A stretch of 64,000 nucleotides of DNA from Candidatus Nomurabacteria bacterium (GTDB lineage: Bacteria; Patescibacteriota; Minisyncoccia; Phycocordibacterales; UBA918). The stretch is taken from the NCBI GenBank assembly GCA_020632075.1, contig JACKGH010000002.1, positions 75,454 to 139,453 of the forward strand, given 5' to 3'. The translations under genes and the position numbers were made by a program. The notes beneath the pieces are model-generated. The model saw only the letters and a program-made list of their open reading frames with translations. It was not told the DNA's origin and ran no database searches. Below are positions 8,760 through 40,024 of this stretch, one piece after another. Positions within the stretch are counted from its first letter, which is position 1. Every line of letters begins with the position of its first letter.

Positions 8760-8836
8760 GCGCTGGTAGCTCAACTGGTTAGAGCACCCGCCTGTCACGC
8801 GGGAGGTTGCGGGTTCGAGTCCCGTCTGGCGCGCCA
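8760..8836 (+). tRNA. tRNA-Asp(GTC), CCA encoded
   Basis: GCGCTGGTAGCTCAACTGGTTAGAGCACCCGCCTGTCACGCGGG... Anticodon loop CTGTCAC, T-arm GCGGGTTCGAGTCCCGT, then GCCA. Confidence 0.85.
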
Positions 8837-9021
8837 CAAAGTAAAACACCGACTGTTTGTCGGTGTTTTACTTTGTCAGCGACAGAAGCTGGCAAACTGC
8901 TTTGCCAGCGTCGGGGGCGAGAAAGTCGGAACGATGTGAGGAAGAATGACGAACGAGTGAGGCGGGGTCGCGAAAAATTTTCGGAGAAAATTTATTTGTG
9001 ACCGAGTCCCGTCTGGCGCGC
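8837..9021 (+). repeat. conserved tRNA-downstream structured element, copy A, ending in a 19-nt direct repeat of the tRNA-Asp 3' end (9003..9021)
   Basis: Two hairpins, then a block cgatgtgagga..gacgaac..g.gg.ggggtcgcg.aaaa-hairpin-tgtgaccgagtcccgtctggcgcgc. About 85 % identical to 39170..39300, with compensatory changes in the aattttc/gaaaatt stem. Confidence 0.5.
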
Positions 9022-9034
9022 AGGAAGAGCAAAA

Positions 9035-9061
9035 GGCCGGCCCCTTCGGGGCCGGCCTTTT
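9035..9061 (+). terminator. bidirectional intrinsic terminator
   Basis: ggccggcccc TTCG gggccggcc plus tttt. Confidence 0.6.
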
Positions 9062-9132
9062 GTGTTCTTATCTTCTCGCTCACCACTCCATAAAAACAAA
9101 ACTCCCACGAGGAGAGTTTTGTGAAATATCTG

Positions 9133-11554: not shown

Positions 11555-14500
11555 TTAATTATCATCCCCGTCATCTCTTTCTAGAGATTTGTATGCTCCT
11601 ATAGTAACACTCAGTTCAAATGTACCTTGTATAACCTGCCCGGCAAATCCAGCTTTATTACCAACAGGAGAAGTAGTCAATGCAGTTTCAAATAGGAATC
11701 CCGCCGTACCACCTGCACCAGATGCTCCAACTTGCGAGCCACTTACTTTTCCATCAAACAGGTAACTCTCTGCTGCGGCAGCAGCTGGTCCAACAACCAA
11801 AGGACCTGATTTTTTAATAGCGGCTGATCCCGCAGTTCCCATGCCAAACAGATAACTACTTCCAGATTCTAGTGGACCGCCGTCAAACGATCCATCCTGC
11901 TTATCAACGTATCCACTAAAGGCAGCATTTGAGATTCCAGTTACTGCAGCTGATCTGGCCATCTGAGTTGATATTGGAACACCAAGTTCTGGGGCAGCTA
12001 AAGTTAGAGCCGCCAAACCAGCTACTGTATAAACTGCTTGTGCCTGTGGTGAAGTAGCAGCGTTCACTGCAGTCTGTCCAGCTTGTTGATAACTCCTTGT
12101 CTCTCGACTGATGTACCCACCAGACAAGTTATCAACTCTTTGCATATTACCCCAGAACATTGCACTGCTTTCTCCATTTGGATCAAACTTGATCAACGGA
12201 TTATTTTCAACATACGAGTAGCTATTCAGTTTCTGAGGATTGGTGAGTAGGTTTGGTTTATCTAATCTGATATGCAATGGGTCCTGAGAAGTGAAGCGTC
12301 CTGTATCGCCGGCGTAATACCTTGCTCCCATGTAGCTCAAATCCGTCTCATCATCGTACTCATGTCCCGTAAACCGCTTGGTCTGATTCTGGTTTCCATA
12401 CTGAGCATCAATCCTTGTAGCTCCAAACGGGTAGTAATCGAGAACTTGAGCGGTGTAACCGATTCCGTCAGTTACCACCCTCGTTGAATTAAGATGGTCT
12501 AAGTGATTGTGGTATGTGAGTGCTCCTGCGCCACTTCCCTCCACAGTTGCTACTAACATGTCTCCAGCGTAAATATGCTTGGTAGTCGTCCCAGTATCGG
12601 TGATCTCGTAGTTAGCGAAAGGATAATAAGTCGTTCCTTCGGAAGTGATCTTGAAGACACGTGAGCCGTTGTGATCATATCCATAGCTGGTCGTAGCAGT
12701 TCCCTCATCTGATTCGACAAGCTGATTGCGGTAATTCCAAGTGTTTGTGGTACTAGCACTAGTAGACGCTAAGTTACCATTTTTATCGTAGGTGTACGTA
12801 ACCCCGTTAATAGCTGTAGCGGCGTGAGGGTTGGCATACCCTGTTTCCGCATACGTATACGAACCTTGGTCAGATTTACTCAGGATGTTTCCGATTGGAC
12901 TATACGTATATGTACGACTATACGGAGTAGTTGTAGCTAAGGTGGTAGAAGCACTGGTGAGACGATACAGATCATCGTAGCCATAGGTAGTAGTTGCAGA
13001 ACTTACAACACCAGAGGAATCAGCGATTTGAGTAATATTTCCAACCGAATCGTATACATAGTTAACTCTTTGAACCACTTCATAAAGAGCGTATGGGTCA
13101 GTGCCTGTCGCCAGAACAAAAGTTGCTGTTGAAGTGCTCCAAATACCCTCTTCGTCCTCGTCATCCCAGAATTTAATTCTCCAGTAGTACAGTGTACTCG
13201 AAGCTAATGTTGAACCTCCGTAGGAAATACTAGGAGTTGTACTCCCTTGTGACGTAGTGGCGAGTGCTGTTTTACCACTGTCCCAAATTGTACTGCCAAA
13301 CCCGCTATCATCATCAACTTGAATCTGATAGTTTACCGCTTGATCACCTGAATCAGGATCATTGTAAACTGCAGTAAATTCGGGTGCACTATCTGAAACG
13401 GCTGTTGGATTTGCGCTACCTTCTGTCTTAAGTTCTGTTGGTGATGTCGGTGCCTGATTGTTAAGTGTGTATTCAGCATACATCGTTAATCGAATACTTG
13501 AAACTTGTGTGGCAGTGAAGCTGCTTGGCCATCCTTCAAAGCTTCCTCCAGTCTCATACTTGTACGCGTTTGATACAGAGTCGTAGTAATCAACTGAAGG
13601 GATCTGAGGCCAATACATAATCCAATATGGAGTACTCCCTGTAACACTGAGATTGATATTACTACTAATCCAAGCAGGTGTAGTAGTTATAGTTTGATTC
13701 CCAGTATCAACTGCCAATCTTGAGTTTGGCGACCCACTTGAGTCCGAATAGATAGCAGTTCCAATCACAGTTGAACCGGACTTCTGTTTTCTTGTGTAAA
13801 CCTTTATTGAACTAACTGTACCAGACTGTCCAGGAGTACCCTTAATGCCACCATAGTCTTTCCCTGAATGTACTGACAAACTCCCCCCGATTGAAGTATC
13901 TCCGAAGGTAGGGTCAACGAAAACTGGGTACTCAGCTGTGTCTAGAAATTCCTGTGGAACTGTGACTATCAACTCACCATCTACAATAGATAAAGCGCCC
14001 CATACTTCGTCACCACTCGAATCTGCAATCTTAGGTCTGTATATATGGAACACTTTTCCTGCACCATAATTAACCCCTCCAAGCACATGTCCACTCAACT
14101 CTTTGTGATAGACAGCGTATGATCCAACGATGTTCTCTGGCCTTTCTTTTCCTTCACCAATCTCCTCTTCTGTTAATTCAGGTTGATAGAAGAAATCAAG
14201 ATTTTCATACCCACTTAAAGAGAATCTGAATTTGTTACTGTCAGGCTTTTCTGCTAAAACTACCTCGATCTCTAGACCTCCGTTTTCCATCTGTTCATCG
14301 CTAGACAAAGGATACACATGGACCTCCTTTGATTGATCTTGGTTCTTCCAGCGAATAAGATTTCCGGCACTGAAGTCTGCTTCTTGAATAGAAATGTCAT
14401 TGTAACTGATTGAGAAGTCAACTTTTTCATTCCATTTTTTAAAACTCACTTCTGGTCGATTCTTTGCAACCTCAACTTCTAAACCATTTACCTTACTAAG

Positions 14501-17500
14501 AGCGAGTTTGCCTCCCAACTCTTTGAAATCAGCCTTGTCAGCCTTTGAATCAGAAACATAAGTTGCTCTCTTATCAATTTTGTTGATTTGACCAGCAGCA
14601 GTAGACTTGCTCTCTTTAGTCTGTTGGCTAACCACATCAATTACATTGCCACTTGAAGTAGAGGTTGTAGCAAAAACTACAGGGACTGTTGTTGTAGAAG
14701 TTGTTGATTTTTCTTGTACGATGTTAAGCCCGTCACTATTTCCTGTTTCTGAAACACCCCAAACTATCTCAGGATTTTCATCCGCCACTTGGCTTTCTCC
14801 TAAATCCAGATTGTCATGTGGAGATGTATCAGAAGAGATTGATCCTGAAGACAAAAGCTCAAAATCAGGAGAGTCTAGCAGCAGCATGATTTCGACCATT
14901 TCCTCACCAGGACCACCAGAACCAGCGGTAGAGGTTGCGGTGGTAACAATAGAGCTGAGGCGATACAACTCACTAGCATCATACGTCTTCGTTGTCGTAG
15001 CACCATTGCTGTGTACTTGCTGTGTAATCAAGTCATGTGGACCATACTCAAAGTTATTCACCACATCAGCAAACGAGCCCCCGCTTTCTCGTTGTTCAAC
15101 CTTTTCAAGCTTATTGGCTTTATTATAGGTGTATCTGACCTCAGAGTCATCTGGATAAGTGAGTAGAGTTTGATTGCCTAATCGGTCGTATTCATATTCA
15201 GTTGCGTATTCAGTACCAGCAATAGTCTTTGTCTCAGTATCAATTAATCCGTTTGGTGTGTAGGTGTAGGTTGTGGTGGCGCTTTCGTTTGCAACAAAAC
15301 ATAGCTGTGAAGCACCATTGGTACAGTTATCGTAGACGTATGTCACGTCAGTATAGCCAGTACCGAGATAATCTTCCGTCAGTACCCGATTCACACCATC
15401 GTACGTGTAGTTCACCACTTGCCCCTTCGGGTCAGTGGTAGAAGACACATTGCCAGCATCGTCATAACTAAACAGCCATGTTCCGTAATCTGTGTCAGAT
15501 GTATCATGCAAGTCTTCCAGTGAGGTGCGCCGAGACAAGCCGTCATAAGTCAGATTGCGAACATTGCCAGCAGCATCAGTTATCTTGATTAAGTCACCCC
15601 TTGCGTTCCAGTCGTAAACAGTATCGTATGAACTAACTCCTTCCTCTTCAGTAACTAGAGTTAGACGTCCATAGGCATCATACTCGAAGATCTTGTCATT
15701 GCTCGCTGCATCAGTAACTGTTTCTTGCCACTGGTCGTAGCTAGTGCTGGTAGTACCAACTACTGTCCCAACAGCCGTAATGCGAGCCAAAGCATCATAA
15801 ACATAGCTCGTCATCAAATCTCCGTCGGTGGTAGCATTGGTGCTGGTAGTACCAGTACTGAAGTAAGGGAGAGACTCAGCCTTCAAGAGACCATTGTCGC
15901 CATATATATAGTCACGTACTGCGTACTGAGTACTTCCTTCAGCTTCGACTCTTTCTTGGATCACCTGACCAAAACCATCATAATAAGTGTATTTACTATG
16001 TGAAGTTGAACCGTCGAGGTAATCGGTCTGTTGCACACTTATCGCCCCAGCAGTATCAGTGTATGTATAAGCTGCAATTTGCACTTGGCTACCAGTCTGA
16101 GGGTCAGGCATATACTTCGCTGTTGGTCGACCAAAGCCATCATAGATAGTGACAAACACTTCTCCATTTGCGTTGGTAGTCGTACCTACCTGACCAGTAC
16201 GATAATCATACTCATACTGAGTGTTGTGTCCTTCAGCATCAGTAGTTGAAGCAACGAATAGATTGTATGTGTCGTAAGCAAAAAGCGTGACGTTGCTATT
16301 AGGGTCGGTCTTAGTGAGAATGTTACCGTACGAATCATAAGTCAACTCTGTATCCACATAAGTGGAGCCAATAACCCAATCTTGTTGTTTGGTAAGATTT
16401 CCTGTCGTAACCGAACCGAGAGATTGATTGTCGTAGTAGTACCTAGATTCTTGAACCTTGGTGCTTGAGTCATCCTCAACCGTGATTTTGGATGGGAGTA
16501 CCAAGTCACTGCTCGTTGCATATTCATAGGTAGTTTCGCGATCGTCGGTTCCAGTATCTGTAAAAGTACCGTCAGTACTACCGCTAACTTCTCCCCACTC
16601 TGTCTTGGTTAACATCGAGCCATGATCACCACTATATATATACGAATTAGCGGAGGCTTTCTTATCACTGTCGCCATCATAGTCGAGCTGCAAATCACTC
16701 TCAAGTTTGACAAAAGTGCTACTGCTACTAAGGGAGGACGTGGCGTAATTGTATCGATTTAGTTGATAAAGGTTATCTGAAAGGTCAGTCTTTTCAGTAC
16801 GATACGCAACACCGAAGAGTGCTTCACCATCAATTTCTTCTTCTGATGACGTAGCGGCTTCATTCCCTTGATGGTAATACGTAATTTCTTTTCCTAAATC
16901 TGTAGTCTTTGTTACTTTACCGAAACCAACAAATCGATGGTCGTAAATGTCGTTCCGGTCTAAATAGTAGTATGCACCCTCATAGACATACTCATCTGTA
17001 GTTTCAGTAACTGACGATGTTTTGGTTACAGACTTTACAACCTGAAGTGAGATTGGAACTGTATTGTCTGTACTTGATTGCCAAAGTGGCTGATACTCGA
17101 TAACTGTCGCGGTGTCAGACACAGGATCAGTTATTGTCGCGAGTCGGAAGTCAGGACCTGGATTCAAATATACACGCATGTTGGATGAGGTGTATTGATA
17201 GGCAATGTCGGCCAGGCCGTCACCGTTAAAGTCAGCTATACGAGCATTCAACCCATCAGAAACATCAGACGACAAGTAAATCGGTGACGGCAGGCCAGGG
17301 AAACTCGATATGGTTGCACCCCAACCCGTTCCCGTATTCAGGCTCACACTAAGAGCACTACTGCCGTATGTACTCTGAAACCCGTTCACCTTATCAGCTA
17401 GACCATCACCATTGAAATCAAAATACTGTTGGGTGATGCCGTTGTTGTGGTCGACGTAAGAAGAATGATCTAAAGACGTCTCATGTTCAAAACCCCCTCC

Positions 17501-19093
17501 ACCACTATTAAGGTAAACCCACATCTGGCTGGTGGTGTACTGGTAAGCAATGTCAGCTAATCCATCACCGTTAAAGTCAGCTACTCGGGCGTTGTGGCCG
17601 TCCACCGTATCTGATGAAAAATACACCGTTGACGGCAAGCCTGACAGGAAACTCGATGATGCCGTTTCCCAACCCGTTCCCGTATTCAGGCTCACACTAA
17701 GAGCACTACTGCCGCTGTCACTCTGGAAAGCATTCACCTTATCAGCTAGACCATCACCATTGAAATCAAAATACTGTTGGGTGATGCCGTTACTACTATC
17801 AACATTCGCGGAATGGTTTAGTGATGATTCGTACTCAAAAGTATTTTCACCCGCGTTAAGGTAAACCCGCATCTGGCTGGTGGTGTACTGGTAAGCAATG
17901 TCAGCTAATCCATCACCGTTAAAGTCAGCTACTCGGGCGTTGTGGCCGTCTGGATCATCGGACGATAGATAGATTGGTGACGGCAAGCCAGGGAAGGTTG
18001 ACGTTGCCCCAACCCATCCACTACCATTACCAAAAATCACTCCAAGTGCATTGCTACCATAGCTACTTTCGAACCCGTTCACTCTATCAACCAAACCATC
18101 ACCATTGAAATCAAAATACTGTTGGGTGATGCCGTCATTATGATCAACATTCGCGGAGTGATTTAGAGCACTTTGATAGACCCAATCACCTGTACCTGCT
18201 CCATACTCAAACACGACAGCCGGCTTGGCCACATCAGTTGTTGGTGTAATGGAGTTTAACCGACCATCACTGTAAGACAGATCGTAAGTAGCAAACGTGT
18301 CACCGCTTTTTTTAACCTCTATCTTACTGATGTGATCCCCAGTATAAACTCGAAACCCTGACCTATAACTAATCCCACGTTTTGACGAACTCGCAACTGT
18401 AAATACTACGGTATACGGACCATAGGAAATGGTCGACGGATATAATTGCCCATCGCTATTAATATAGGTGTAGCTTATTTCATTTCCGTTACTATCAGTA
18501 CTACTGGCGAGATACCATCTGTAGATACGATTCGGATCGTCTGGATCTGCCATATGGGAGGAGAAAATATGGGTAGTACCATCTTTATCTGTTGTCTCCC
18601 AGGTACTTTGATTTGGATGACTATATACTCGAAAATTACCAAAATCTACTTCGGGTCTGTAATCGCTGCCATCCGCAATCAATTCTCCATCTAAGGACGA
18701 AACAAAAACCGGATCATCATAAATCGTATTTACCCCCTTACGGCTTGAGAGACTAATGTATGGAATACTGTCCTTCCAAGCAGCACCATAAACACCAACC
18801 ACATTCTCTTCATGTGAATTGTACAAAAGCGACACTGTTGGAGTATGTCCATTAACGCCCGGAGGCAAAGCAATTTCATACTGATAATCAAAAGCGCCAG
18901 AAGCATTGTCGTACGATGACCAAAGTGAGACTGGCTGGACGGCGTTTTGTGTTGTTCTCGCAGGATCGCCAACTACAAGTGAAGCATGAGCAAAAGGTAT
19001 GTCACCAAATGGACCAATGAATAAAATGACCGCCAAGAATAAACTGGCGGTTTTAGTAAGAAACGGTTTGCGAATAGTGTTTTTGTAAGTCAT
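11555..19093 (-). CDS. secreted 2512-aa TcB/TcC-like polymorphic toxin: signal peptide, SpvB-like domain, three tandem FG-GAP/VCBS repeats, RHS/YD-repeat shell with an internal insert of about 600 aa, RHS core with DPxG autoproteolysis motif, and a 205-aa Gly/Ala-rich C-terminal variable domain
   Basis: SpvB-like block LPPGVNGHTPTVSLLYNS..GAAWKDSIPYISLSSRKG. Three repeats of about 110 aa with FDFNGDGLAD. Many YD repeats (YTYDSYGNILTKTD..). Core YYPFGATR...RFTGHEYDDETDLSYMGARYYAGDTGRFTSQDPL...NPLIKFDPNGE. Confidence 0.85.
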   Translation of the reverse strand: MTYKNTIRKPFLTKTASLFLAVILFIGPFGDIPFAHASLVVGDPARTTQNAVQPVSLWSSYDNASGAFDYQYEIALPPGVNGHTPTVSLLYNSHEENVVGVYGAAWKDSIPYISLSSRKGVNTIYDDPVFVSSLDGELIADGSDYRPEVDFGNFRVYSHPNQSTWETTDKDGTTHIFSSHMADPDDPNRIYRWYLASSTDSNGNEISYTYINSDGQLYPSTISYGPYTVVFTVASSSKRGISYRSGFRVYTGDHISKIEVKKSGDTFATYDLSYSDGRLNSITPTTDVAKPAVVFEYGAGTGDWVYQSALNHSANVDHNDGITQQYFDFNGDGLVDRVNGFESSYGSNALGVIFGNGSGWVGATSTFPGLPSPIYLSSDDPDGHNARVADFNGDGLADIAYQYTTSQMRVYLNAGENTFEYESSLNHSANVDSSNGITQQYFDFNGDGLADKVNAFQSDSGSSALSVSLNTGTGWETASSSFLSGLPSTVYFSSDTVDGHNARVADFNGDGLADIAYQYTTSQMWVYLNSGGGGFEHETSLDHSSYVDHNNGITQQYFDFNGDGLADKVNGFQSTYGSSALSVSLNTGTGWGATISSFPGLPSPIYLSSDVSDGLNARIADFNGDGLADIAYQYTSSNMRVYLNPGPDFRLATITDPVSDTATVIEYQPLWQSSTDNTVPISLQVVKSVTKTSSVTETTDEYVYEGAYYYLDRNDIYDHRFVGFGKVTKTTDLGKEITYYHQGNEAATSSEEEIDGEALFGVAYRTEKTDLSDNLYQLNRYNYATSSLSSSSTFVKLESDLQLDYDGDSDKKASANSYIYSGDHGSMLTKTEWGEVSGSTDGTFTDTGTDDRETTYEYATSSDLVLPSKITVEDDSSTKVQESRYYYDNQSLGSVTTGNLTKQQDWVIGSTYVDTELTYDSYGNILTKTDPNSNVTLFAYDTYNLFVASTTDAEGHNTQYEYDYRTGQVGTTTNANGEVFVTIYDGFGRPTAKYMPDPQTGSQVQIAAYTYTDTAGAISVQQTDYLDGSTSHSKYTYYDGFGQVIQERVEAEGSTQYAVRDYIYGDNGLLKAESLPYFSTGTTSTNATTDGDLMTSYVYDALARITAVGTVVGTTSTSYDQWQETVTDAASNDKIFEYDAYGRLTLVTEEEGVSSYDTVYDWNARGDLIKITDAAGNVRNLTYDGLSRRTSLEDLHDTSDTDYGTWLFSYDDAGNVSSTTDPKGQVVNYTYDGVNRVLTEDYLGTGYTDVTYVYDNCTNGASQLCFVANESATTTYTYTPNGLIDTETKTIAGTEYATEYEYDRLGNQTLLTYPDDSEVRYTYNKANKLEKVEQRESGGSFADVVNNFEYGPHDLITQQVHSNGATTTKTYDASELYRLSSIVTTATSTAGSGGPGEEMVEIMLLLDSPDFELLSSGSISSDTSPHDNLDLGESQVADENPEIVWGVSETGNSDGLNIVQEKSTTSTTTVPVVFATTSTSSGNVIDVVSQQTKESKSTAAGQINKIDKRATYVSDSKADKADFKELGGKLALSKVNGLEVEVAKNRPEVSFKKWNEKVDFSISYNDISIQEADFSAGNLIRWKNQDQSKEVHVYPLSSDEQMENGGLEIEVVLAEKPDSNKFRFSLSGYENLDFFYQPELTEEEIGEGKERPENIVGSYAVYHKELSGHVLGGVNYGAGKVFHIYRPKIADSSGDEVWGALSIVDGELIVTVPQEFLDTAEYPVFVDPTFGDTSIGGSLSVHSGKDYGGIKGTPGQSGTVSSIKVYTRKQKSGSTVIGTAIYSDSSGSPNSRLAVDTGNQTITTTPAWISSNINLSVTGSTPYWIMYWPQIPSVDYYDSVSNAYKYETGGSFEGWPSSFTATQVSSIRLTMYAEYTLNNQAPTSPTELKTEGSANPTAVSDSAPEFTAVYNDPDSGDQAVNYQIQVDDDSGFGSTIWDSGKTALATTSQGSTTPSISYGGSTLASSTLYYWRIKFWDDEDEEGIWSTSTATFVLATGTDPYALYEVVQRVNYVYDSVGNITQIADSSGVVSSATTTYGYDDLYRLTSASTTLATTTPYSRTYTYSPIGNILSKSDQGSYTYAETGYANPHAATAINGVTYTYDKNGNLASTSASTTNTWNYRNQLVESDEGTATTSYGYDHNGSRVFKITSEGTTYYPFANYEITDTGTTTKHIYAGDMLVATVEGSGAGALTYHNHLDHLNSTRVVTDGIGYTAQVLDYYPFGATRIDAQYGNQNQTKRFTGHEYDDETDLSYMGARYYAGDTGRFTSQDPLHIRLDKPNLLTNPQKLNSYSYVENNPLIKFDPNGESSAMFWGNMQRVDNLSGGYISRETRSYQQAGQTAVNAATSPQAQAVYTVAGLAALTLAAPELGVPISTQMARSAAVTGISNAAFSGYVDKQDGSFDGGPLESGSSYLFGMGTAGSAAIKKSGPLVVGPAAAAAESYLFDGKVSGSQVGASGAGGTAGFLFETALTTSPVGNKAGFAGQVIQGTFELSVTIGAYKSLERDDGDDN
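11558..12172 (-). other. C-terminal variable domain of the RHS protein (toxin tip), Gly/Ala-rich with GxxxG glycine-zipper-like runs
   Basis: Lies after DPNGE: ...GMGTAGSAAIKKSGPLVVGPAAAAAESYLFDGKVSGSQVGASGAGGTAGFLFETALTT... Confidence 0.5.
17230..18200 (-). repeat. three near-identical tandem repeats of about 330 bp inside the RHS gene (FG-GAP-like units)
   Basis: The protein repeats NHSANVD.N.GITQQYFDFNGDGL.D.VNGF.S.YGS.AL.V...G.GW...S.F.GLPS..Y.SSD..DG.NAR.ADFNGDGLADIAYQYT.S.M.VYLN three times. Nucleotide blocks are also near-identical. Confidence 0.7.
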
Positions 19094-38929: not shown

Positions 38930-39020
38930 GGAGAGTTGGCTGAGTGGATGAAAATGTCTGGGAGACATTTTCATCCGACTAAAAGGAGGTGGACGAACTT
39001 GTTCGACCTGAAGCCAACTC
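38930..39020 (+). repeat. element carrying an 18-nt copy of the tRNA-Ser 5' end, a perfect 14-bp hairpin and a 9-bp closing inverted repeat
   Basis: GGAGAGTTGGCTGAGTGG is identical to the first 18 nt of the adjacent tRNA-Ser. The hairpin is GGATGAAAATGTCT GGG AGACATTTTCATCC. The end AGCCAACTC is the reverse complement of nt 4-12. Confidence 0.5.
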
Positions 39021-39030
39021 GAAGTGAAAC

Positions 39031-39117
39031 GGAGAGTTGGCTGAGTGGTCGAAAGCGCCTCACTGCTAACGAGGTAAGGGCTAAACCCCTTCATGGGTTC
39101 GAATCCCATACTCTCCG
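39031..39117 (+). tRNA. tRNA-Ser(GCT), type II
   Basis: GGAGAGTTGGCTGAGTGGTCGAAAGCGCCTCACTGCTAACGAGG. Long variable arm TAAGGGCTAAACCCCTTCA, T-arm TGGGTTCGAATCCCA, acceptor ACTCTCC plus G. Confidence 0.8.
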
Positions 39118-39300
39118 CTCGTTGAAAATACCACCGTCAGGTGGCTATTTTCTTGAGCGGAGAGTAAGTAAAGTGCCCTGCGGCACTTTACGTTGGGATT
39201 CGAAAGCCGCAGCGATGTGAGGAGCTTGCGACGAACAATGCGAGACGGGGTCGCGGAAAATTTCTGCAAGAAATTTATCTGTGACCGAATCCTGAAAAAT
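39118..39300 (+). repeat. conserved tRNA-downstream structured element, copy B
   Basis: About 85 % identical to 8890..9010 over the block cgatgtgagga..gacgaacaatgcgagacggggtcgcggaaaatttc-TGCAA-gaaatttatctgtgaccgaatcc. The tail mimics the tRNA-Ser T-arm (cgaatcc). Confidence 0.5.
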
Positions 39301-39385
39301 GCTATAATACTTGTATTAAGCGGCTTTTCCGCATCCAAGAGCTAGCACGAGACACCTGTCTCGTGCTAATTCGTGAGTAAGATGA

Positions 39386-40024
39386 GTGTATACTGATGTT
39401 ATGCTACGAAGTTTCTTAGACTGGCTCTTATATTTTATTCTAAAAAGCCGTAGACAGGCACAGAGAAGAGAAGTGTCTTCGAACAGTCTTTTCGTCTTTG
39501 AGAATGTGCAAGTTCTTTATGATAAGGGCTTTGTTGGGGCTATGAAATTCACACTTGCTTTCTTGTTTAGAATCATTCTTGTTTTTGGTCCTCTGGTCTT
39601 TTTCCTACTCTACCTTGATCATGGAAGTAATCTGTTTTCACAAAATTTAGCTAACGACCAAATCTATACATGGGGTTTTGTTTTTGTAATGCTAACACTA
39701 ATAGTATTTAGTGGTTATTTTGCACACGGACACCACAGTGACATGAGTGGTTTGGGTACAACGTATGATTTGAAGGAGTTAATTAAATCTAAATTCAGCT
39801 TGTTCGTCAGCAAAGATGGATTATATGGCGTAACAAAAGTGCGGTGGAAATCTATACGGTTTGTAGAAGGATCTGCAAGTCAAGAGGCAAGAATTTATTT
39901 AAAAAAACGACTTCTTTTGCCATTACCATCATATAGTTACAGGATAAAATTCTCATCCCAAGAGGATTTGAATAGGTTCATAGATTTAGCGCTCGAGACG
40001 CTTCGGGAGCGAAGTGTAAAATGA
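39386..40024 (+). CDS. hypothetical membrane protein in an AT-rich islet (about 35 % GC): two TM helices plus a C-terminal beta-rich domain
   Basis: Follows tRNA-Ser plus element. The start may be at the internal MKFTLAFLF. The architecture resembles the RHS-downstream immunity candidate. Confidence 0.45.
   Translation: MYTDVMLRSFLDWLLYFILKSRRQAQRREVSSNSLFVFENVQVLYDKGFVGAMKFTLAFLFRIILVFGPLVFFLLYLDHGSNLFSQNLANDQIYTWGFVFVMLTLIVFSGYFAHGHHSDMSGLGTTYDLKELIKSKFSLFVSKDGLYGVTKVRWKSIRFVEGSASQEARIYLKKRLLLPLPSYSYRIKFSSQEDLNRFIDLALETLRERSVK

Follow-up and report, generated by a model that had tools for sequence, protein, structure and literature searches.

The DNA analyzed here is a stretch of 64,000 nt (the window) from a Candidatus Nomurabacteria contig (JACKGH010000002.1, positions 75,454 to 139,453). 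On its + strand, about 185 nt located 3′ of a tRNA-Asp gene (8760-8836) end in a 19/19 copy of the 3′ end of this gene (9003-9021, identical to 8816-8834). Our analysis suggests, with a probability of about 0.55, that this sequence is one copy of a family of insertion units of Paceibacterota that are devoid of open reading frames (ORFs), non-autonomous and site-specific, that have their target set by base pairing and that lie inside the 3′ end of an essential conserved gene. This previously uncatalogued family includes three copies in the window and about 30 more, all from Paceibacterota genomes or metagenomes, and full-text literature searches retrieved no description of such elements.

The units (about 150-200 nt) share one plan: (i) X_p, a working ("live") copy of the last 11-37 nt of the target, (ii) a hairpin, T1, (iii) one or two antisense segments, (iv) a core of about 100 nt made of two helices, P2 and P3, the latter ending in GTGAC(C), and (v) X_b, the displaced native end of the gene, often followed by a terminator-like hairpin (9029-9063 for the tRNA-Asp copy). 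In the window, the flanking repeats formed by X_p and X_b are 19/19 (tRNA-Asp), 19/19 (tRNA-Gln) and 7 nt (tRNA-Ser) long. The segments complementary to the target are the most unusual feature of the units and were absent from the initial annotation of this locus.

Copies in the window and in other genomes

A relative of the sequence found next to tRNA-Asp adjoins the 3′ side of tRNA-Ser (39031-39118) and ends with cgaatcc (39286-39292). The pattern CGGGGTCGCG..TGTGACCGA has only two matches in the window (8963-9005 and 39246-39288), compared to none in 100 shuffles; the similarity of the two copies is genuine and far above chance. The identity of about 85% initially claimed between 8890-9021 and 39170-39300 is an overestimate: these spans are 65.5% identical when aligned globally, and the core alone (8920-9011 versus 39201-39294) reaches 76.8% (76% mean column identity in a separate alignment). 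The AT-rich hairpin that had been described as compensatory does show such a change, an A-T pair at 8971/8997 being replaced by G-C in the second copy (alignment columns 84/132); the two copies also differ by one missing base pair that affects both strands. A second hairpin, overlooked earlier, has a constant CTGC loop and wholly different stems (gctggcaaa/tttgccagc at 8888-8909 versus taaagtgcc/ggcacttta at 39169-39190). The mimic of the neighboring tRNA 3′ end reported at the end of each copy is present in both, over 19/19 nt for tRNA-Asp and as the cgaatcc mentioned above for tRNA-Ser. A third copy had also been overlooked: it lies 3′ of tRNA-Gln on the minus strand (574-770), was found via the 11-mer CGATGTGAGGA and likewise terminates in a 19/19 copy of the tRNA-Gln 3′ end. 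Three of the eight tRNA genes of the window carry a unit, whose parts are the following.

8760-8836, + strand: tRNA-Asp(GTC), target of copy 1 (ARAGORN, Rfam)
8816-8834, + strand: live 3′ end X_p of copy 1, last 19 nt before CA, cgagtcccgtctggcgcgc (repeat search)
8838-8874, + strand: hairpin T1 of copy 1, aaagtaaaacaccgac-tgtt-tgtcggtgttttacttt, directly 3′ of the tRNA (sequence, fold; not scored as a canonical terminator)
8879-8886, + strand: antisense segment g2 of copy 1, gcgacaga, facing the acceptor 3′ strand tctggcgc with one G.A mismatch
8888-8909, + strand: side hairpin H of copy 1, with a CTGC loop and a stem that covaries completely with the tRNA-Ser copy
8912-8923, + strand: antisense segment g1 of copy 1, cgggggcgagaa, pairing with the T-loop/T-stem ttcgagtcccg; CGAG facing CGAG gives tandem G.A
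8925-8963, + strand: core helix P2 of copy 1, with four tandem G.A/A.G pairs set between Watson-Crick pairs (..CGGAACGATGTGAGGA-loop-GACGAACGAGTGAGGC) (alignment, pair counts)
8967-9002, + strand: core helix P3 of copy 1 (GGTCGCG...TGTGAC), tipped by a cGGAg triloop and including the conserved wobble G81.U135 (alignment, pair counts)
9003-9021, + strand: displaced native tRNA-Asp 3′ end X_b of copy 1, 19/19 with 8816-8834, without CCA
9029-9063, + strand: terminator-like hairpin T2 past the displaced end of copy 1, 16 pairs and a T run
39031-39118, + strand: tRNA-Ser(GCT), target of copy 2, with live X_p at 39100-39118 (ARAGORN, Rfam)
39124-39152, + strand: hairpin T1 of copy 2, terminator-like, then a T run
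39156-39165, + strand: antisense segment g2 of copy 2, agcggagagt, 10/10 with actctccgct, reaching past the acceptor stem
39169-39190, + strand: side hairpin H of copy 2, CTGC loop
39194-39204, + strand: antisense segment g1 of copy 2, tgggattcgaa, facing ttcgaatccca, which spans the insertion point
39206-39246, + strand: core helix P2 of copy 2
39250-39285, + strand: core helix P3 of copy 2
39286-39292, + strand: displaced tRNA-Ser 3′ end of copy 2, of which only the remnant cgaatcc is left
771-844, − strand: tRNA-Gln(TTG), target of copy 3, with live X_p at 773-791 (ARAGORN)
735-770, − strand: hairpin T1 of copy 3
708-734, − strand: antisense region of copy 3, with g1 (tagggcgagaa) at 708-718
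655-706, − strand: core helix P2 of copy 3 and an extra distal hairpin gcggc..gccgc
593-651, − strand: core helix P3 of copy 3, long form, tip GAGCGTAGCGAA
574-592, − strand: displaced native tRNA-Gln 3′ end X_b of copy 3, 19/19
543-563, − strand: T2 of copy 3, a hairpin and T run past the displaced end

T2 of the tRNA-Asp copy is probably the original terminator of this tRNA gene. Since the only canonical terminator of this copy follows the displaced end, its co-transcription with tRNA-Asp, which the initial annotation had offered as its other reading (a co-transcribed ncRNA), is plausible. A CCA end is encoded by only two of the eight tRNA genes of the window, tRNA-Asp and tRNA-Gln, which are the pair with a full-length displaced 3′ end, tRNA-Ser being among the six devoid of it. 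CCA was set aside as a sign of a reverse-transcribed mature tRNA because live copies in related loci lack it and one empty tRNA-Glu carries it. At the end of the tRNA-Ser copy (39281-39308), where the displaced tRNA end is gone, a −35-like GTGACC lies 16 nt upstream of TGcTATAAT; together they may form a hybrid promoter for the ORF 39386-40024.

The first search for other members of the family used a three-block pattern derived from the window copies and was run on species-representative genomes, metagenomes and viral contigs. It revealed 10 loci in species-representative genomes, all of Paceibacterota (Nomurabacteria, Kaiserbacteria, Elulimicrobium and others), and 13 loci in metagenomes, i.e. 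23 loci from the candidate phyla radiation (CPR). The initial annotation had proposed to look for further copies with a covariance model, and such copies were found (about 30), with covariation support: a model (R1) built from 21 distinct copies gave 43 matches in the collected sequence, including divergent subfamilies, and matched only the three copies in the window. In viral contigs, the standard pattern and a third pattern gave no match, and a "universal core" pattern gave two matches, with model scores of 10-13 bits and located in DNA of 63-69% GC, that were taken as chance. A blastn search of two copies against 72,556 plasmids retrieved only short chance matches.

Units were found in at least eight tRNA species, i.e. 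those for Asp, Gln, Ser(GCT), Ser(CGA), Leu, Thr, Glu and Phe, and in two protein genes. The initial idea that copies might always sit 3′ of tRNAs does not hold: ftsZ is invaded within its final 37 nt at nine loci, and rplB (ribosomal protein L2) within its final 11 nt at one. Insertion occurs in the T-loop after C56 for tRNA genes, 37 nt before the stop codon of ftsZ and 11 nt before that of rplB. Overall, at least 10 targets are used by cores that are about 90% identical.

Two loci, L013 (3400-3600) and L014 (740-930), both on the − strand, carry an unrelated core, E3 (agcttttgcgatagatttgcccacagggcagatatatccaaaaggtgtactgaa..), with split antisense segments and a displaced tRNA-Asp end, inserted 2-4 nt off the standard position. 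As E3 shows the same organization, this plan is common to at least two unrelated cores. In another locus (L004:4051-4161, − strand), the displaced end of a standard unit is a tRNA-like 3′ end with terminal CCA (caagtctctcatcgctcacca) and the upstream sequence contains neither an intact tRNA nor a live copy, which makes it a solo or relocated unit.

Mobility, gene ends, folding and antisense segments

The units are mobile insertions that replace a gene end; their movement is shown by their occurrence in tandem and by orthologous sites that are empty. Arrays of several units at one target, alike or not, are present in six loci (L008, L011, L012, L013, L014 and L016). Some of them are mixed at the same T-loop position: L013 combines a standard unit with E3, and in L014 a truncated standard unit accompanies E3 and a variant unit. 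Two different units lie 3′ of tRNA-Glu in L012. Empty orthologous sites were found for tRNA-Glu (L023) and for tRNA-Ser(CGA) (L012, L019 and L023). Furthermore, near-identical cores occupy different targets, as in the tRNA-Gln copy of the window and the ftsZ copy of L010, indicating that retargeting is fast compared to core divergence. The initial reading of the locus as an integrative element, with the intact tRNA as attL and the displaced 3′ end as attR, was largely right, in view of the arrays, the empty orthologous sites, a decay restricted to the downstream copy and a covarying family of about 30 copies.

No strain polymorphism was detected, the other assemblies of the same organism being 100% identical over the tRNA-Asp copy; the window matches GCA_020428695.1 (contig JAGQMK010000008.1) at 100%. 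In four independent short-read assemblies of this organism, a contig ends at 9037, 9037, 9046 and 9099, in or just past the T2 hairpin, and the NCBI contig ends at 7965 inside tRNA-Thr. These ends may result from repeats, palindromes or strain heterogeneity.

The protein-coding targets indicate where the live end comes from. In five ftsZ loci, both end copies encode VPAFLRRSKLK* and differ at 28 codons, all synonymously (28 versus 0). At L001, 15 of 36 nt differ between the two ftsZ ends, including AGT/TCG for Ser and CGC/AGG for Arg, and the rplB copies show an AGA/CGG difference for Arg. Such synonymous divergence implies that the repeats are not a duplication made at insertion, which rules out a target-site duplication, and that one of the copies comes from a distant allele of the same gene. 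Judging from these codons, X_p is of foreign origin. The live copy is intact at every locus, and truncation or decay affects the displaced copy in at least six of them (the tRNA-Ser copy of the window, L007, L011, L015, L016 and L023). In two related tRNA-Asp loci, the sequence located past the last displaced copy is a shared native flank and each unit has its own T1 on its left. Taken together, the integrity of the live copy, the decay and this flank pattern indicate that the unit consists of the live copy, T1, the antisense segments and the core, and that the displaced copy is the old end of the resident gene. At L007:2050-2260 (− strand), the 3′ half of tRNA-Thr(TGT), from the anticodon stem onwards, is present a second time (46 nt) between this tRNA and a standard unit, which is a further layer of gene-end duplication.

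In the 21 distinct copies, 89.6% of the cells of the three proposed helices (antisense:X, P2 and P3) are paired, compared to 77% in shuffles and 31-36% with slid partners. Two-sided changes affect 18 of the 28 pairs, and the covariation score was reached by none of 500 shuffles. In a wider alignment of 32 sequences, which was made with the model and leans towards it, 24 of the 28 pairs show two-sided changes. In P2, two or three Watson-Crick pairs alternate with tandem G.A/A.G pairs, and the flanking pairs covary (AC/GU, AU/AU, GC/GC); a kink-turn reading of this helix was rejected because its bulges are of 1 nt and not 3. The distal GA-rich module of P2 is swapped for an ordinary helix in several subfamilies, and its junction-proximal sequence (GGCGGAGCGAT / AGCGAGCCGGGG) is kept across subfamilies. 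P3 ranges from 25 to 60 nt and has a G.U wobble at one position in 20 of the 21 copies; such conserved wobbles indicate that the folding strand is the sense strand of the host gene. Long P3 tips are C(GNA)G triloops with flanking G.A pairs in 17 of 21 (GAGC-GUA-GCGAA, GAAC-GUA-GUGAA) and short tips are cGGAg, cGUAg or cGAAg. When each of the three window units is taken from the start of its live copy through GTGAC, the predicted folds are closed multi-helix junctions (z = −6 to −10, whether RNA or DNA parameters are used), in which the live copy is paired with the antisense segments end to end for tRNA-Ser and partly for tRNA-Asp and tRNA-Gln. The units are selected for the single-strand fold of the sense strand.

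Most tRNA units have two antisense stretches (g2 and g1) flanking the small hairpin H and its CUGC loop, the other units having a single stretch. The complementarity straddles the insertion point, over 10-19 nt on its 3′ side and 2-5 nt on its 5′ side. The mean predicted pairing energy is −22.3 kcal/mol with the own target, compared to −11.2 when it is matched with targets from other loci, and shuffled guides reach −9.0. Of 18 loci, 17 have an antisense that fits the displaced copy less well than the live copy taken with its 5′ flank, and these predicted pairings show that the antisense segment matches the intact target. For TTCGAG T-loop targets, three copies have CGAGAA in place of CTCGAA, which turns two Watson-Crick pairs into tandem G.A. 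The possibility that the antisense is a degenerate tRNA 5′ half was rejected: it reaches the discriminator and the trailer beyond the acceptor stem (in the tRNA-Ser copy, the 10/10 match with actctccgct extends past the 7-bp acceptor stem) and it is also present at ftsZ and rplB.

Proposed mechanism, rival explanations and known systems

We propose that the unit acts as a folded single strand. In the free strand (circular or looped out), X_p would pair with the antisense and close a multi-helix junction, so that the first and last bases of the unit would meet at the foot of P3. During insertion, the antisense would pair with an intact target instead, and strand transfer would occur at the foot of P3 (Campbell-type, from a circular or looped-out single strand), catalyzed by an enzyme that would be encoded elsewhere or owned by the host. 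Insertion would regenerate the target and could be repeated, which would explain the arrays. Since an occupied tRNA site keeps an intact target, a model that destroys the target (nuclease homing) is excluded for tRNAs, and the decay of the downstream copy excludes an obligatory intron. RNA and single-stranded DNA are about equally likely as the active strand. The fixed G.U wobble, the G.A motifs and the likely co-transcription with ftsZ and tRNA-Asp point to RNA; the C(GNA)G tips, the terminator-like T1 of several units and the fact that no reverse transcriptase would be needed point to DNA, for which IS608, the integron attC sites and the CTX phage, all using folded single strands, are precedents. 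A bolder version is that of a natural programmable and gene-less integration module, in which a core of about 100 nt and an exchangeable guide would insert the unit at any guide-matched sequence, with catalysis by the nucleic acid itself or an ordinary host enzyme; it would be a new class of mobile elements that protects the host via a replacement gene end, a possibility that we put forward only tentatively.

Several points weigh against the reading preferred here. As the search patterns were derived from the copies of the window, some of the conservation of the core blocks is partly imposed by the search. X_p and X_b are identical in tRNA targets, so that an occupied site still resembles a target. 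One unit located 3′ of tRNA-Glu (L016:6057) has no recognizable X_b; the last 4 nt of the tRNA belong there to a perfect hairpin, of which the "antisense" is simply the 3′ arm, and the minimal need could thus be a hairpin 5′ of the core and not a guide. The strand-transfer step is purely inferred. Finally, this reading does not account for the joint gain of a new X_p and a matching antisense on retargeting.

Searches for an enzyme were negative. No ORF fits in any unit. No recombinase, integrase, transposase or reverse transcriptase was found in the window, where a Pfam search of 50 ORFs revealed only housekeeping functions (CTP synthase, FtsEX, RF, LigA, a type IV pilus cluster, LeuRS, RecG and others). 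All-against-all blastp of the ORFs of 20 loci revealed no ORF family associated with the copies beyond conserved gene order (the ftsA/ftsZ neighborhood and a thioredoxin-reductase-like gene). In Rfam 15, only tRNAs reach the gathering threshold over the whole window; on two copies, thresholds of E ≤ 10 and E ≤ 1 gave only tRNAs and hairpin noise, and no ribozyme, intron or IS605-related motif.

An RNA-level element is an unlikely alternative to a unit targeted by its antisense. Core and antisense would then form a small ribozyme (self-cleaving/ligating or intron-like), co-transcribed and acting at the foot of P3, whose unit-length, possibly circular RNA would reach new sites via reverse splicing or reverse transcription. 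The order guide, P2, P3, junction and substrate strand is indeed the strand order of a type I hammerhead, the guide straddles the junction like the internal guide sequence of group I introns (P1/P10), and the conserved G.U wobbles, like the tandem G.A motifs, are of a kind typical for RNA tertiary structure. No terminator separates ftsZ from the core and the sole canonical terminator of the tRNA-Asp copy follows X_b. However, several tRNA-type units begin with terminator-like hairpins, the lack of any Rfam ribozyme or intron match extends to E ≤ 10, and the junction strands (RRR, GGG) contain no known catalytic core, the 3′ terminal base being C and not the G of group I introns. Splicing is neither needed nor maintained, as the live copy is always intact and the displaced "exon" is decayed in at least six loci, and no reverse transcriptase lies nearby (window and loci near copies). 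It is also decidedly unlikely that the units are relics of tyrosine-integrase elements related to cis-mobilizable elements (CIMEs), with the repeats as attL and attR, the core as a leftover attP arm and an antisense that does not guide. T-loop insertion with a replaced 3′ end, tandem accretion arrays and sites in housekeeping 3′ ends are classical for integrases. Integrase insertion in the 3′ ends of tRNA and housekeeping genes has reportedly been described by Williams (2002, NAR 30:866) and for ICESt1 and a CIME at fda. Furthermore, tRNA fragments left by integration are widespread (PMC9897764). However, more than 30 copies share one compact plan without variable leftovers, their antisense changes with the target, and their helices stay paired as the sequence changes, with strand-specific G.U pairs, which is unexpected for double-stranded protein sites. 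The use of at least 10 unrelated targets by cores that are about 90% identical is also unlike a site-specific integrase, and none is encoded in the 64 kb window.

The two remaining explanations involve no dedicated enzyme or no movement. We consider as very unlikely an enzyme-free hitch-hiker of natural transformation and homologous recombination, for which the gene body and X_b would be homology arms, the antisense would hide X_p in a hairpin, the core would fold up, the insert would loop out of the incoming single-stranded DNA and replication would fix it. Such a scenario would fit the tips, which are mostly C(GNA)G triloops (GCGAAGC, GCGTAGC, ACGTAGT, cGGAg, cGTAg; 17 of 21 long-type). This motif reportedly forms hyperstable DNA mini-hairpins, according to Hirao et al. 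It would also fit DNA parameters that separate the units from shuffles at least as far as RNA parameters do, the presence in the window of a type IV pilus/competence-like cluster, LigA and RecG, and the recoding of the ftsZ X_p, which reduces its homology with X_b. However, it accounts neither for the conservation of the junction-proximal P2 sequence across subfamilies nor for a break that lies, at every locus, precisely at the outermost 5′ limit of X, nor for retargeting. Least probable is a non-mobile cis-acting RNA that would be part of the 3′ trailer of the transcripts of tRNA genes, ftsZ and rplB and would serve the host in their processing, stability or regulation. The units are always on the sense strand, directly 3′ of highly expressed essential genes, and the antisense could sequester the 3′ end of the transcript. 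However, orthologous sites are occupied or empty, only three of the eight window tRNAs have a unit, and such a role fits neither the truncated copies nor the arrays that combine unrelated cores at one site, nor the duplicated gene ends, which are of foreign origin.

We filed the units, read as insertions targeted by their antisense, among the gene-end-replacing integrative elements. They recall integrase-driven insertions and CIMEs by their genomic setting, and IS110 bridge RNAs, the guide sequences of IS608 and those of introns by their guide logic, yet they depart from the defining features of each of these. Like tyrosine-recombinase tRNA elements and CIMEs, they insert in the 3′ part of tRNA or housekeeping genes and bring a replacement end, the native one persisting downstream as a direct repeat, and they form tandem arrays. 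Unlike them, they measure 150-200 nt, lack genes, conserve their core as a single strand that folds and not as double-stranded protein sites, contain their target in antisense and, within one family, use many unrelated targets. Direct repeats of the 3′ part of the target and a gene restored at the left junction are present, and no integrase gene was found in the units, the window or the loci near copies; the one att site per family of integrase elements contrasts with the at least 10 targets found here. Miniature inverted-repeat transposable elements were rejected, as the ends of the units (X_p ... GTGACC) are not inverted repeats and the flanking repeats differ by up to 15/36 synonymous substitutions.

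With IS110/IS1111 elements (bridge RNA/seekRNA), the units share a structured non-coding segment whose base pairing sets the target, the same guide logic for the target and their own junction, and a proposed circular intermediate. In contrast, these elements possess a DEDD/serine recombinase gene and two guide loops, whose short split guides flank a 2-nt core, and they neither duplicate nor replace their target; a bridge RNA or seekRNA was rejected because the units have no gene and their antisense, continuous or in two parts, lies outside the core helices. IS200/IS605 elements and their PATE and REPIN derivatives are similar in their folded single strand, their sub-terminal hairpins next to the cleavage points, their internal guide pairing and their non-autonomous miniatures. 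However, they have a 4-nt guide and a tetranucleotide target, cause no gene-end replacement or long direct repeats and need TnpA (HUH). A unit of this type (PATE, omega-RNA) was rejected because of the long flanking repeats, the absence of TnpA/TnpB from the window and the absence of an Rfam match.

Group I and II introns also have an internal guide (EBS-IBS) that pairs with both sides of the insertion point and occupy conserved sites of essential genes (tRNA, rRNA) while being phenotypically silent. The units, in contrast, have no catalytic core, terminal G, GUGYG or domain V; the gene is rescued by its duplicated end and not by splicing, and the downstream "exon" decays. Besides the absence of Rfam matches, a group I intron was rejected on account of the core (about 100 nt, two helices) and of the last base (C, not G), and a group II intron on account of P3, whose 25-60 nt have a pairing unlike that of domain V. 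Small self-cleaving ribozymes (hammerhead, hairpin, twister, pistol, hatchet and hepatitis delta virus-like) have no Rfam match either; for the hammerhead, GUGAGGA..GACGAAC departs from CUGANGA..GAAA at two invariant positions, C3 and A14, and subfamilies have a plain helix in its place. A retron (msr-msd) was rejected: its flanking inverted repeats have a counterpart in form (antisense versus X_b), yet no reverse transcriptase gene lies beside any copy. A diversity-generating retroelement was rejected because the copies differ by synonymous third-position changes of all kinds, without adenine bias, and no reverse transcriptase was found. The ssoA single-strand origins of rolling-circle plasmids consist of a folded strand of about 150 nt with RS_B (TTATGCCGAGAAAATTT) in a stem and CS-6 (TAGCGT) in the terminal loop (PMC4598088). 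In the units, the short-type P3 has GAGAAAATTT and the long-type tips have TAGCGA or TAGTGA, the two motifs never occurring in one copy. Synthetic cleave-and-rescue or recoded homing drives similarly associate an essential target with a recoded working replacement next to a guide; this is only an analogy, as the units are natural and not engineered, their tRNA targets are not recoded and no nuclease is known for them.

If the antisense does set the target, the units would be the smallest known guide-directed mobile elements and a rare example in nature of a mobile element that rescues an invaded essential gene by supplying a new and sometimes recoded end. They would bear on the survival of mobile DNA in CPR genomes of 0.6 Mb with almost no room and on the origin of nucleic-acid-guided recombination, and could possibly provide compact programmable insertion tools. 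They also explain partial tRNA genes and duplicated ftsZ and rplB ends in CPR assemblies, and perhaps some contig breaks, and the covariance model can be used to annotate them.

Repeats on the 5′ side of tRNA genes and other window features

The 5′ side of tRNA-Gln (826-1010, − strand) displays a mirror-image insertion, made of a 115-nt insert between 35-nt direct repeats (1010-976 and 860-826, one mismatch) that include 16 nt of the upstream flank and the first 19 nt of the tRNA. The tip of the first hairpin of this insert (GAGCGTAGCGAG, 951-961) is the tip motif of P3 in the 3′ units. Upstream of tRNA-Ser (38930-39030), the first 18 nt of this tRNA (ggagagttggctgagtgg) are repeated at 38930-38947 and followed by a hairpin, a hairpin containing GACGAAC, an antisense gaagccaactc (39010-39020) and then tRNA-Ser itself. 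By its arrangement, this region looks like a unit of the same design as the 3′ units that would replace a 5′ end.

A complete tRNA-Ile(TAT) gene (58716-58790) is nested in a different tRNA-Ile(TAT) gene split in its anticodon loop (58602-58848). The 5′ half of the outer gene lies at 58602-58637 and its 3′ half, with CCA, at 58806-58848, followed by a strong terminator; the stems of these halves match each other and not the inner gene. Lastly, a 2512-aa ORF (11555-19093, − strand) encodes a toxin-like surface protein with SpvB, RHS-repeat, FG-GAP and YD-shell domains, which is very large for such a small genome.

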